Shown piece by piece: positions 5,771-11,730 of a DNA stretch of 14,745 nt; the first letter of the stretch is position 1, and every line of letters begins with the position of its first letter. Location: assembly GCA_040880105.1 (NCBI GenBank), contig JBBDJA010000029.1, positions 1-14,745 on the forward strand, given 5' to 3'. Source of the DNA: Waddliaceae bacterium (lineage in GTDB: Bacteria > Chlamydiota > Chlamydiia > Chlamydiales > SLOH01). The notes under the pieces were generated by a model. That model did no database searches and had not been told where the DNA came from. It worked only from the letters and a program-made list of their open reading frames with translations. A program made the position numbers and the translations under genes.

Positions 5771-6913
5771 ATGCCTATGCTAGATTTTAAAAAATTATCC
5801 AAAATTGATTTCCGTTTGATTCCGGTGCTTGGAATCCTAATGCTCATCAGCCTTCTTGTTATTTCTTGCGCGACAAGTGAAATGACACCTAGCGGGTTTG
5901 AAGAGCGCATATTTACACCTTATGTTGTCAGCCAAGCCAAGTGGTTTTTTATCGGAACACTAGTCTTTATATGCACAGCTGCCTTTGACTATCGCAAACT
6001 ACACGAATGGACGTGGTTACTGTACGCGCTCATGATTATTACACTCCTTGGTCTTTTCTTTACCAAGACCATTGTAGGTGTGCAAAGATGGTATCGCATC
6101 CCACTCATCGGGATTAGTTTTCAGCCATCGGAAACAGCAAAGCTGATTGTTGTCATTACCCTTAGCTGGTTCCTAGAGAGGTATTCGGATCGAGCAACAC
6201 GCATTAGTACATTATTTTGGGCAGGCATCATTGTCGGTATTCCCTTTCTTTTGATCTTAAAACAACCGGACCTGGGTTCCTCTCTTGTTTTGATTCCAAT
6301 GACTTTAATGATGCTGTATTTTGGTAACATCCACCCTAAAATCGTTAAAGGATTGACGTATGTCGCACTGGTCTTTCTTATTTTTATTACATCAATATTT
6401 CTCGGCTTGATTCCACACGAAATTGTAAAACCGATGGCGACGAAGGTTTTAAAGGAGTATCAATTAAAGAGATTAGAACCAGGCACTCACCACCAAAAAG
6501 CAAGCGAGACAGCAATCGCAATCGGGGGCTTAACAGGAACAGGATGGAGGAAGGCGGAATACACATCAGGGGGCTGGCTCCCGGCGGCATGGACAGACTC
6601 TGTCTTCCCATCATACGCTGAGCAATTCGGTTTAGTAGGCGTGATCTTTCTAATCTCCCTTTTCTACATACTGCTTTACCTCTGTTTCCAAGTCACAGCA
6701 GCAGCTCCTAACCTATTCGGTAGACTCCTAGCCGCAGGAATCACCGGCTACATCGCGATCCACATTCTGATTAATATAGGAATGATGACAGGCTTTCTTC
6801 CCATCACCGGGGTTCCGCTTGTTTTAATCAGTTATGGCGGTACGAGTACTCTAATTACAATGGCAGCCCTCGGTCTTCTTCAAAGCATCTATAGCAGGAG
6901 GTTTATGTTCTAA
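5771..6913 (+). CDS. rodA: SEDS-family peptidoglycan glycosyltransferase RodA
   Basis: Multi-TM protein with GVQRW, FQPSETAK, KQPDLG, WTDSVF and PITGVPLVLISYGGTS motifs. Divergent from birA. Confidence 0.92.
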   Translation: MPMLDFKKLSKIDFRLIPVLGILMLISLLVISCATSEMTPSGFEERIFTPYVVSQAKWFFIGTLVFICTAAFDYRKLHEWTWLLYALMIITLLGLFFTKTIVGVQRWYRIPLIGISFQPSETAKLIVVITLSWFLERYSDRATRISTLFWAGIIVGIPFLLILKQPDLGSSLVLIPMTLMMLYFGNIHPKIVKGLTYVALVFLIFITSIFLGLIPHEIVKPMATKVLKEYQLKRLEPGTHHQKASETAIAIGGLTGTGWRKAEYTSGGWLPAAWTDSVFPSYAEQFGLVGVIFLISLFYILLYLCFQVTAAAPNLFGRLLAAGITGYIAIHILINIGMMTGFLPITGVPLVLISYGGTSTLITMAALGLLQSIYSRRFMF

Positions 6914-7350
6914 TGGCGCAACATCAATTTTTATTTACAGAAGGCAATTGGCTCGGACAAGGTGAGTTGCAGCTGGCCGGATCTAAAGAGACTCTTCCGG
7001 TATTCATTCGTTGGGAAATAGAGCCCATAAGAGAAAACGCAGTATTATGTAAGCAAACTGTCGAAGTGCCATCCGCTCAACATAAAGGAGTCAACTACTA
7101 TACTCTGACACTTCAAACAACATCTACCTTTGAAATTTCACTCAAGAATGAATTTATCTCTACTAAAGGCCATGGATTGATTAAGGAAAATTCTATCACT
7201 TGGAACTTTCAAGATGAAGGGACGCTTGAGGGAGAGGAGGTATTTACTCTTCAGAACAATGGAGAGTATCATTTTAATGCCGAGTTTTTCTCCGCTGTTC
7301 AGCAAGAGACACGCATTAGCGGCAGAATCTGGAAGACTTCAAATGTCTGA
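6913..7350 (+). CDS. Hypothetical protein, probably all-beta
   Basis: 145-aa ATG ORF coupled to rodA by a TAATG overlap. Alternating polar/hydrophobic strands. Confidence 0.8.
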   Translation: MAQHQFLFTEGNWLGQGELQLAGSKETLPVFIRWEIEPIRENAVLCKQTVEVPSAQHKGVNYYTLTLQTTSTFEISLKNEFISTKGHGLIKENSITWNFQDEGTLEGEEVFTLQNNGEYHFNAEFFSAVQQETRISGRIWKTSNV

Positions 7351-7426: not shown

Positions 7427-7771
7427 TTAACCCATCATCCCGGCTTTGATCTTAATATCAACTCCAGCAGGAAGAGTGAGGCCTTTTAATGCATCAATGG
7501 TCTTGCCTGTTGGATTTTGAATTTCAATCAAACGTTTATGAGTACGGATTTCAAACTGTTCGCGAGATTTTTTGTTCACGTGCGGTGATCTAAGAACAGT
7601 GTAAATCTCTCTTCTTGTTGGAAGAGGGATTGGACCTGCGATTCCGGCACCTGTACGCTTAGCTGTTTCAACAATATCTGCTGTTGAGCGATCAAGCAAG
7701 CGTTGATCATATCCCTTAAGGCGAATCCGAATCTTCTGGATTGCTTTTTTTTGTTGTTGCTGTTTAGCCAT
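7427..7771 (-). CDS. rpsJ: 30S ribosomal protein S10
   Basis: [17 protein letters not shown] and [23 protein letters not shown] motifs. Confidence 0.98.
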
Positions 7772-7780
7772 TGATCTCTC

Positions 7781-9865
7781 TTACTTTTTGATAATTTCTT
7801 CTTGTACTTTAGCTGGAACGCGTTGGAAATGCGCAAATTCCATTGTATAGTTTGCTCGACCTGAAGTAATCGAACGCAAATCAGTAGCGTAACCAAACAT
7901 TTCGCTAAGTGGAACTTGGGATTCAACAACAGCTGCACTTTTCTGCATTTCTTGCTTTTGAATCTGTCCTCGACGACGGTTAATGTCACCGATAACATCT
8001 CCCATTGAAGCTTCAGGCGTTGTCACAACCACTTTCATGATCGGTTCTAAAATGATTGGCTTTGCCTTTGCAGCGGCTTCTTTAATCGCCATAGATCCGC
8101 AAATTTTAAAGGCCATTTCATTCGAGTCAACATCATGGTAAGAACCAAATACAATTGCCACTTTGACGTCAACCAGGTTATAACCGGCAAGAATACCGCT
8201 AGTGAGTCCTTCCTCAATCCCCTTAATAACAGCTGGGATATACTCTTTTGGAATCACACCACCGACGATTTTACTTTCGATTTGAATCCCTTTTCCTGTC
8301 TCGTTAGGTTCAATTTCAAGCTCAACGTGCGCGTACTGTCCACGTCCACCACTTTGCTTCACAAACTTTGTTTGCGATTTAGCTGGAGCAGTGATTGTCT
8401 CTTTGTAAGAGACTTGAGGCTTACCGACATTGGCTTCAACGTTAAACTCTCTTCTCATTCTGTCATGCAAAACATCAAGGTGCAGCTCACCCATTCCGGA
8501 AATAATCGTTTGTCCCGTATCTTCATCTGTAGAGACGCGGAATGTTGGATCTTCTTCGGAAAGCGCGCTGAGTGCAGTTGAAAGCTTTTCACGATCTGCT
8601 TTAGACTTCGGCTCAATCGCCATTGAGATCACAGGCTCAGGGAAGACCATTTTTTCCAAGATAACCTGCTTTTGACCCGCAGCGCACAATGTATCACCTG
8701 TTGTTGTGTACTTCAATCCGACGCAAGCTGCAATGTCACCGGTAAAGAACTGATCGCGCTCTTTCCTTTGGTTTGCATGCATCTCGATCAATCTTGAGAC
8801 ACGTTCCTTCTTTTCCTTTGATGTATTGACAAGGTTCATCCCTTTGTCCAATACGCCGGAATAGATACGAACAAATGTTAATCGTCCGACATAAGGATCC
8901 GTCATCACTTTAAAGGCAAGCGCTGCAAGCGGAGCATCATCTCTTGGCTCGATGTTAACTTCTTCTTCCGAGTCTTCTAAAAGGCCTTTAACATTCGTAC
9001 GATCAAGCGGGGATGGCATCCACTCGACGATTACATCAAGCAGTTGTTGCACTCCCTTGTTCTTTAAAGCACTTCCGCAAAGAACCGGATTAATTTTATT
9101 GGCGATTACACCTTTTCTGATCACAGCATTGAGTTCTTGAGGAGTCAATGCGTCCGGGTCTTCCAGAACTTTTGTCATAAACTCATCATTCTCATCTTCT
9201 AGAAGAGCAAGCTCATCTAAAAGCTCTGCGCGCATTTCATTTGCTCGATCAAGATAGTCTGCCGGAATTTCTTTCTCTTCCCATGTCGATCCGAACTCTT
9301 CTTCTTTGAAGAAAAGCGCCTTCATCGTCACAAGATCGATGATTCCATCAAATTCAGCCTCTGCTCCGATAGGTAAGTGAACAGGAATCGCATTTGCATG
9401 TAACTTTTCTTTCATGGAAGCGACAGCATCAAAGAAATCTGCCCCCATCCGATCCATTTTGTTAATAAACGCGATACGAGGAACTTCATAAGTGTCCGCT
9501 TGACGCCAAACAGTCTCTGATTGAGGTTCTACACCTGACACAGCATCGAAAACAGCTACAGCACCGTCAAGAACACGCAATGAGCGCTCTACTTCTACAG
9601 TAAAGTCAACGTGCCCGGGTGTATCAATGATGTTAATCTTAGACGTTTTCCAAAAAATTGTGGTCGCCGCCGATGTGATGGTAATTCCACGCTCTTGTTC
9701 TTGTGCCATCCAGTCCATTGTGGCCGCGCCATCATGAACCTCTCCGATACGGTGGGATTTTCCGGAGTAAAAAAGAATACGCTCGGTAACGGTCGTTTTC
9801 CCGGCATCGATGTGTGCCATAATTCCGATATTACGCACGTTTTTTACACGATCATTTTCTATCAT
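7781..9865 (-). CDS. fusA: Elongation factor G
   Basis: [40 protein letters not shown] and YHDVDS motifs. Start placed at ATG 9865, after a GGAGAAGGA SD-like sequence. Confidence 0.98.
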
Positions 9866-10356: not shown

Positions 10357-10548
10357 CGTTTAATATTCTCCAATTCACTCTAGGCGCATTTGCCTATTTA
10401 AATAATTACCCGCGTTATTCACAGGAAATATCAGGAGATCAAAACAACTTCACGTAGGTTCAAACAGAACCGGTGCGTGATTTGTGTTTACGCAAACACA
10501 AATCACGAACTAGGATCTCATTATATAGAGATCCTAGAGTTACTTAGG
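10357..10548 (-). promoter_or_regulatory. Structured rpsL-rpsG intercistronic RNA, candidate S7-responsive translational operator
   Basis: Four hairpins (10510-10537, 10476-10507, 10457-10471, 10381-10396). A long-range CUCUAGG/CCUAGAG helix is flanked by AGUAA and UGAAU next to the rpsG SD. Confidence 0.6.
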
Positions 10549-10911
10549 ACGCTTCGCCCCGTATTTTGATCTTCCTTGCTTACGGTCCTTTACAGCACCA
10601 CAATCCAAAGCTCCGCGTACAATATGGTAACGCACACCGGGCAAGTCTTTTACACGACCGCCACGGACAAGAACAATGCTGTGCTCTTGTAAGTTGTGTC
10701 CTTCTCCCCCGATATAGGCAATAACTTCCTGCCCAGTTGAGAGTCGAACCCATGCAACTTTACGCAATGCAGAGTTTGGTTTTTTCGGCGTCTTTGTTTT
10801 CACTTGAACGCAAACTCCTCTTCTTTGAGGACACGCTTGCAATGCAGGTGATCTACTACGCTTTTTCTTTGGCGTTCTATTCTTCCGAACGAGTTGGTTA
10901 ATCGTTGGCAT
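10540..10911 (-). CDS. rpsL: 30S ribosomal protein S12
   Basis: [30 protein letters not shown] and [13 protein letters not shown] motifs. Confidence 0.99.
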
Positions 10912-11046: not shown

Positions 11047-11730
11047 TTAATAAAGAACAAAGTGAAGATTTTCCCCGCCCATTTCTTTGAATAACTCTAA
11101 ATGAGAAATCCATTCAAGCTCGGCAAGTCCTCGACAAATCGAAAGAGAGCCGGCGATAAAGCAAAGTATAATAAAGATAGAATTATATGAAGTTTTCCAT
11201 TTAGCAAGATAGCGATGCGAATGCATTGCAAGTAGTAAGGATGGACTCGTCAGTAGAGCAAACACAAATCCATTGATCAACCCAACTTTCACACTTCCGA
11301 CAAGTGCACATGCGGAAAATACAACAATTGTCTGTCCGCAGGGAAGCAAAACTGTAAAAAATCCAAATAGAAAAAGAGAAAATGGATGGGGGCTTAAAGC
11401 AAAACGGGTCAACCGGTGATTAAAACGATTCATCCATGAAAATGAAAAAGAGGGAATGCGTATAACATTTTTTAAACCTATAAATAAGACAACTCCTCCA
11501 AATAAAAGACTAGTGATTGCCGGGATATGGAATAATTGCACGAGATGACTAAGCACTGCACCGAGTCCGCCTGCGACTGCGCCCGCAAGAGAAAATGAGA
11601 GGGTGCGCCCAAAAAAGTACCATAAACGGTGGGGGTGTAGACCAATTGTCATTACAAGAGGACCACACATTCCCATGCAGTGCAGATTTCCTAAAAGATA
11701 AAACGGAAGCATTGAAAACAGTAATGTCAA
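11047..11730 (-). CDS. DsbD_2 / sulfite exporter TauE/SafE-like membrane protein (cytochrome-biogenesis/metal-handling type)
   Basis: HCMGMCGP and LLPCG motifs, about 6 hydrophobic segments, TTG start with GAGG 5 nt upstream. Confidence 0.82.
   Translation of the reverse strand: MTLLFSMLPFYLLGNLHCMGMCGPLVMTIGLHPHRLWYFFGRTLSFSLAGAVAGGLGAVLSHLVQLFHIPAITSLLFGGVVLFIGLKNVIRIPSFSFSWMNRFNHRLTRFALSPHPFSLFLFGFFTVLLPCGQTIVVFSACALVGSVKVGLINGFVFALLTSPSLLLAMHSHRYLAKWKTSYNSIFIILCFIAGSLSICRGLAELEWISHLELFKEMGGENLHFVLY

Follow-up and report, generated by a model that had tools for sequence, protein, structure and literature searches.

In Escherichia coli, protein S7 of the ribosome binds the spacer between rpsL and rpsG, in which AGUAA/UGAAN is one proposed site and CCA/UUGGR a second (PMC3616713, Fu et al. 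2013), and its regulation acts on coupled translation only (PMC10931766, Aseev et al. 2024). On the ribosome, S7 recognises the junction of helices 28, 29 and 43 (h28-h29-h43) of 16S rRNA (PMC13674486), at first protecting h43 only (PMC10216711). A sarcin/ricin-like motif is located in this junction, and AGUA/GAA is a generic structural module of many RNAs (PMC8450098). Many bacteria have long S12-S7 spacers (PMC10931766, PMC3616713). In the parts of these two papers available to us, the E. coli S7-operator structure is described as not obviously conserved in other phyla, with chlamydiae unmentioned (PMC3616713), and S7 regulation as unstudied in other phyla save for a cyanobacterial proposal (PMC10931766). 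The cyanobacterial S12-S7 spacer (Meng et al. 1989, via PMC3616713 and PMC10931766), likened here by the reviews' description alone, resembles the RNA described below in its place and in its proposed 16S mimicry but belongs to a different phylum. No chlamydial S7 element was found in the accessible parts of the full-text literature, including PMC7247131, PMC1913097 and PMC2965389, although subscription papers and supplementary motif tables could hold one, nor did a term look-up in bioRxiv 10.64898/2026.10.21.760802 find one.

We analysed a stretch of 14,745 nucleotides (the window), in which the genes of interest lie as follows.

10540..10911, minus strand: rpsL (S12, 123 aa; TIGR00981), whose last codon and stop, AAG UAA, supply AGUAA
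9880..10356, minus strand: rpsG (S7, 158 aa; TIGR01029), encoding the predicted ligand and predicted to be the first regulated gene
10368..10371, minus strand: rpsG Shine-Dalgarno (SD) sequence GGAG, from sequence, outside the conserved fold
7781..9865, minus strand: fusA (EF-G; TIGR00484), starting 14 nt past the rpsG stop
7427..7771, minus strand: rpsJ (S10; TIGR01049), directly 3' of fusA

The original prediction had placed this DNA in a chlamydia-like genome, and this was borne out, the nearest S7 relatives among named records being mostly Chlamydiales/Parachlamydiales. The order at 7427-9865 (minus strand), with rpsJ directly after fusA and neither tuf nor rplC behind, is usual for chlamydiae. 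Two open reading frames that flank the cluster, at 11047-11730 (minus strand, 227 aa) and 6913-7350 (plus strand, 145 aa), gave no NCBIfam match at 1e-5. The rpsL-rpsG spacer is 183 nt long on the minus strand, and the rpsG start region from -15 to +3 has a predicted mean unpaired probability of 0.70.

S7 searches yielded 188 loci with both genes (including E. coli) and 3 without rpsL; 179 of the former remained once 9 exact duplicates had been dropped. We excluded one locus from an unpublished genome, and none of our claims depends on it. A tree of S12 plus S7 put 138 loci in a chlamydial clade (support 0.64, weakly resolved) and 41 outside it. Spacer lengths in the clade were bimodal, 38 being 7 to 52 nt and 100 being 85 to 318 nt, and the short and long groups were set by this length and not by any motif. 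An anchor search that required A[GA]UAA and U[GA]AA, scored the flushness of the inner hairpins and ignored the letters of helix P1 found three hairpins between AGUAA plus 4 nt and 3 nt plus UGAA in 79 of the 100 long spacers. Trained on 63 of these 79 anchored elements, a covariance model then matched 15 of the 21 long spacers that the anchor search had left out, bringing the element to 94/100; the model missed L011, L019, L027, L070, L148 and L163.

The conserved RNA occupies 10544-10449 (minus strand) in the window and consists of AGUAA, a short bulged helix, three hairpins that complete a four-way junction and, at its end, UGAA. Its parts are these.

10540..10544, minus strand: AGUAA, 5' strand of a predicted bulged-G (sarcin/ricin-like) module; its last A pairs with U10452
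10536..10539, minus strand: P1 5' strand (Y, bulge, Y, Y), from anchored counts and alignment
10512..10535, minus strand: P2 hairpin with an AGGA...UCCU base; 94% of cells paired, two-sided changes in 8/9 pairs
10473..10510, minus strand: P3 long hairpin; 80.5% paired, two-sided changes in 18/18 pairs
10457..10471, minus strand: P4 hairpin with a GG...CC base; 91.9% paired, two-sided changes in 3/3 pairs
10449..10455, minus strand: P1 3' strand and UGAA (10452-10449), found by an anchor search blind to the P1 letters

In a MAFFT alignment that was not fitted to structure (A1), 87.0% of cells were paired, compared with 68.4% in shuffled controls and 33.7 to 46.4% with slid partners, and 31 of the 34 pairs showed two-sided changes. 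Unaided, RNAalifold recovered P2, P3 and P4 but not P1. Anchored counts gave the first P1 pair in 78/79 elements, the third (a3-b2) in 63/79 and the fourth (a4-b3) in 76/79. At a4-b3 both partners changed on the same branch eight times, seven of these being pair-to-pair, and at a3-b2 there was no clean same-branch compensation among the 79 elements. The excess of G-U cells (177) over A-C cells (73) points to an RNA on the mRNA strand. Related genomes are not independent in these element counts, which are read against the weakly resolved tree. We conclude that the spacer element is a real, conserved, covarying RNA family.

In the window itself, P1 comprises C10539-G10453, a C10537.C10454 mismatch at a3-b2 and U10536-A10455, and the protein-free fold prefers a small decoy pairing at the mismatched third pair. 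The covariance model matched 10447-10546 with 75.1 bits (the window was in its training set), and a 151-nt region folds with z = -8.9. A promoter and terminator scan of the window found nothing within the conserved element. Rfam 15 gave no match at the gathering threshold in the spacer and only chance matches elsewhere; because Rfam also misses the E. coli operator, this null does not speak to S7 operators.

AGUAA was invariant in alignment A1. It coincided with the rpsL stop in 86/100 long and 13/38 short spacers (Fisher p 7e-9, a value that overstates the difference because kin are not independent); long open reading frames in the genome of the window that end in Lys-UAA use AAG 19 times and AAA 39 times. 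Among the 14 long spacers with another stop, in 11 the element was anchored by an AGUAA 3 to 135 nt downstream, and the remaining 3 were among the loci missed by the covariance model. This reappearance of AGUAA downstream argues that it is selected as RNA. Altogether the motif lies off the stop in 17/79 elements, by up to 135 nt, so overlap with the stop is not required; parsimony on the weak tree gives about 16 changes of offset. The displaced copies retain AGUAA. One displaced case, L043, has a 130-nt insert (spacer positions 1-130 after the rpsL stop) between stop and AGUAA that forms one long hairpin with inverted ends, and an outer helix with the rpsL end is still predicted, as if a MITE-like insertion had been tolerated inside the junction. 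In L025, AGUAA lies 84 nt further on and the outer helix is rebuilt from noncoding sequence upstream of AGUAA.

This outer helix, P0, and a neighbouring small hairpin reach into the rpsL coding sequence.

10562..10576, minus strand: P0 5' arm, inside the rpsL codons G-R-S-K-Y; pairs with 10446-10433, pair probabilities 0.62 to 1.0
10433..10448, minus strand: P0 3' arm, from duplex comparison and folds
10546..10560, minus strand: small h29-like hairpin in the rpsL codons G-A-K-R-P, pair probabilities 0.87 to 1.0, sitting where 16S h29 would be

We divided the anchored elements into 55 long-tail ones, with at least 40 nt from UGAA to AUG, and 24 short-tail ones. In the long-tail elements the bases after UGAA paired better with their own upstream sequence (mostly the rpsL end) than with the mean non-cognate in 51/55 cases, with mean duplex energies of -11.8 versus -8.2 kcal/mol and 25 elements at z<=-2 against shuffles, whereas the short-tail elements gave no P0 signal, the cognate duplex being better in 11/24. 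Whole-region folds contained P0 in 43/55 long-tail and 0/24 short-tail elements. The structure ends 18 to 31 nt before the AUG in the short-tail form, mostly 33 to 46 nt before it in the long-tail form and 76 nt before it in the window. The smallest natural forms, with 59 to 75 nt from AGUAA to UGAA, are L067, L136, L151, L155, L156 and L157. The h29-like hairpin was present in the rpsL G-x-K-R-P codons of 47/54 long-tail loci versus 19/38 short-spacer loci. With the peptide fixed it forms in 39/43, 10/16 and 15/16 outgroup loci; because of the last of these counts, obtained with the same peptide, we rejected the hairpin as a selected part and do not count it as evidence.

For comparison with 16S rRNA we used three copies from two chlamydial relatives, no assembled 16S rRNA having been found in the genome of the window. 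All three read AGUAA-U...G-UGAAU. In the mRNA element the A-U pair (63/63) is followed by U-G (38) or C-G (38), that is, by Y-G in 76/79. At the level of sequence, AGUAA-Y/G-UGAA thus corresponds, in the same register, to the base of helix 43 of 16S rRNA, which belongs to the S7 site, and we take the AGUA/GAA letters to be the sarcin/ricin-like motif of the h28-h29-h43 junction. The long-tail form also repeats the order of that junction: outer helix, hairpin, AGUA, helix, GAA, outer helix. There are differences: a four-way junction, in place of the short loop of h43, caps the chlamydial helix, the base that follows UGAA varies, and the h29-like hairpin is without demonstrated selection.

The likeness to the Gammaproteobacterial S7 operator lies in the same spacer, the same position on the mRNA strand, AGUAA and UGAAN strands that close a helix into a multibranch junction, and an outer helix below the module, which in chlamydiae is the P0 of one subgroup. 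The E. coli spacer reads AGUAA-GG...CC-UGAAU, and its UGAA lies 23 nt before the AUG, compared with 22 to 35 nt in the short-tail chlamydial form. In E. coli, however, the junction has three stems, whereas that of the chlamydiae is a four-way junction of three covarying hairpins; the A-U pair is followed by G-C, not Y-G; and CCA and UUGGR are both present, as they are in only 5/79 chlamydial elements. AGUAA lies 13 nt downstream of the rpsL stop in E. coli, while in chlamydiae it usually is the stop, and the E. coli outer helix contains the rpsG SD in the predicted fold, whereas its chlamydial counterpart pairs rpsL coding sequence and leaves the SD outside the conserved fold. The covariance model (R1) gave no match on the E. 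coli locus (L196) at E<=1, so shared ancestry of the two RNAs is not supported. The chlamydial element does not belong to the S7 RNA family of Gammaproteobacteria (Fu et al. 2013).

Taken together, these comparisons make it reasonably probable that the spacer RNA is an S7-binding feedback operator that lowers translation of rpsG and the genes downstream when free S7 is in excess. That S7 is the ligand of the chlamydial element seems likely and is the firmest part of this proposal; the whole mechanism, including repression of rpsG-fusA-rpsJ translation, we would put somewhat above even chances. In most genomes the motif includes the rpsL stop, and P0 occupies the end of the rpsL coding sequence, so a ribosome that completes rpsL would have to unfold P0, the motif and P1. 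The hairpins would bring the rpsG start effectively closer and so favour coupled re-initiation. Free S7 might then clamp the motif once it has refolded; in most genomes the motif ends about 18 to 46 nt upstream of the AUG (in the window, 76 nt). The bound protein would reduce coupled initiation, or the loading of 30S subunits, at rpsG and, via coupling, at fusA and rpsJ. The exact geometry of E. coli does not carry over, because the chlamydial SD is not sequestered. The rarity of the second E. coli S7 site (5/79) and the absence of P0 from the 24 short-tail elements count against an S7 operator. In its strongest form the proposal would be that environmental chlamydiae widely carry an independently evolved S7 operator, repeatedly lost, which rebuilds the h28-h29-h43 junction from the rpsL end and its own stop, so that termination and S7 binding are mutually exclusive, the four-way junction serves as a re-initiation bridge and the stop codon itself is the protein-binding site of a translational switch; this is possible, but we advance it tentatively and at less than even confidence.

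The element might instead act without a protein, as a coupling or mRNA-stability structure whose module and junction make the spacer compact, shield it or flag a site of processing. AGUA/GAA is indeed a recurrent self-structuring module (PMC8450098), the SD is open and in most genomes the structure stops 18 to 46 nt short of the AUG, the second E. coli S7 site is nearly always absent, and many lineages lack the element, 38/138 having short spacers. Against this, a short spacer would be a simpler means of coupling the genes than a 100-nt junction, the invariant A-U with Y-G next to it reproduces helix 43 in register, and the spacer is the one that S7 binds in E. coli (PMC3616713). We therefore regard a protein-independent role as rather unlikely.

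Less likely again is that the RNA serves feedback by a different operon product (EF-G, S12 or S10) or by S7 acting with a partner. This would fit with fusA and rpsJ lying directly behind rpsG and with the conserved bases of the junction (AGGA/UCCU, G-C and GG/CC), for which we found no counterpart in the S7 site. In the loop of 23S rRNA, a C-G pair and a tetraloop close off the bulged-G module. Elongation factors engage the bulged-G motif in 23S rRNA (PMC5961109), but the chlamydial RNA, with its invariant A-U and its junction, is like h43 and unlike that 23S loop. Furthermore, S10 assembly needs S7 and S9, and the list of six primary binders does not include S12 (PMC10931766).

The original prediction had proposed a 16S-helix-43-like, S7-type element in this spacer, for which the comparative data provide support, and had built it in a way that they do not support. 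It paired CUCUAGG with CCUAGAG to bring AGUAA together with a distal UGAAU, next to the rpsG SD.

10373..10384, minus strand: distal CCUAGAG-UGAAU; the conserved partner lies elsewhere, and this one is no more than a lineage-specific alternative

The strings are present as described (AGUAA 10544-10540, CUCUAGG 10539-10533, CCUAGAG 10384-10378, UGAAU 10377-10373 and UGGAG 10372-10368), and the two heptamers are complementary. In the predicted fold, however, all seven pairs have a probability of 0.0, and enforcing them raises the minimum free energy from -89.1 to -70.4 kcal/mol, at a cost of 18.7 kcal/mol. Five of the seven bases of the 5' arm lie within a local 10-bp hairpin (10537-10528/10519-10510, p 0.93 to 1.0), and the 3' arm is taken by another (10396-10392/10385-10381, p 0.93 to 1.0). 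A 7-bp helix between AGUAA and UGAA occurred in 1/100 long spacers, that of the window itself, the next best having 5, 4 and 4 bp. The distal site was compared in one sister genome, L002, the single other genome of the family in the collection searched (two collection scans found no relative nearer than 79% S7 identity); it carries CCUUAAAG at the heptamer site, which breaks the helix at its third pair. We therefore rejected the heptamer helix. The UGAA at 10377 proved to be the wrong copy, the conserved partner of AGUAA being 10452-10449, and the fifth position of UGAAU varies (G 44, U 17, A 13, C 5; n=79). Nor does the conserved fold bring the stop beside the rpsG SD, its UGAA being 22 to 135 nt, and in the window 96 nt, upstream of the AUG.

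That the earlier fold nevertheless forms, or serves as one state of a two-state switch in this genus in which the distal CCUAGAG-UGAAU replaces the proximal partner and puts the stop beside the SD, is very improbable. In its favour, dinucleotide shuffles of the spacer contained the heptamer complement in 47/20000 cases and the complement followed by UGAA in 0/20000 (a post hoc pattern), AG-UGAAUUGGAG is retained in both genomes of the genus, and the C.C mismatch weakens the proximal P1 in both. Against it, beyond the energetic cost and the broken helix in L002, P0, which directly follows the proximal UGAA, is also retained in both genomes, and the distal motif overlaps the translation-start region, which would explain its conservation without pairing.

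A selfish hairpin repeat (REP/MITE) or an intrinsic terminator or attenuator can practically be dismissed: a feature in its favour, a weak terminator-like hairpin at 10425-10409 (minus strand), lies outside the element in nonconserved distal spacer that differs in L002, a U-tract follows P4 in 0/79 elements, and the element has no second copy in its own genome (blastn), matches once per genome (25 candidates scored in each) and always lies between rpsL and rpsG (30/30 loci).

An S7 operator in the rpsL-rpsG spacer is already known from E. coli; the four-way-junction architecture is new. A family of about 100 aligned examples, including natural minimal forms and cases with the motif moved off the stop, opens two points to direct experiment: the portion of 16S rRNA that S7 requires on an mRNA, and the way in which termination on one gene is linked to initiation about 150 nt further downstream. 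If the S7 operator proposed here is real, it would be a case of convergent rRNA mimicry and a control kept in many environmental chlamydiae and not found in the small-genome family searched (f35).

The covariance model matched 68/150 Chlamydiales genomes, once each (62/127 of those of high quality), in a search that scored 25 candidates per genome, left one genome unscored and included some genomes of the training set. Both rpsL and rpsG were present in 30/30 match loci that were fetched. A second, overlapping draw gave matches in 64/150 Chlamydiales genomes, distributed by family as 17/17 in f31, 15/22 in f8, 0/17 in f43 and 0/26 in f35. Family f35, three of whose spacers measure 43 to 48 nt, is probably the Chlamydiaceae, judging by its genomes of 1.0 to 1.3 Mb and its large genus. 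The long or short state of the spacer changed about 15 times on the tree, which suggests that the element has been lost repeatedly.

In other phyla the covariance model matched 0/5 genomes. Among 30 spacers from the phylum to which a Lentisphaeria record belongs and 29 loci from that of an Acidobacteria record, AGUAA followed by UGAA occurred in L241 and L286 only, the former in a spacer of 39 nt and the latter with no match to the model. On a nonchlamydial metagenome contig, the 128-nt spacer of L178 has AGUAA and a later UGAA flanking a hairpin; it gave no match to the model, and its minimum-free-energy fold does not pair AGUAA/UGAA in the manner of h43, so that either chance or a separate S7-type site is possible. 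In the 26-nt short spacer of L166, a P1-like 5' strand is still followed by a terminal AAGUGAA, possibly a relic of a lost element.
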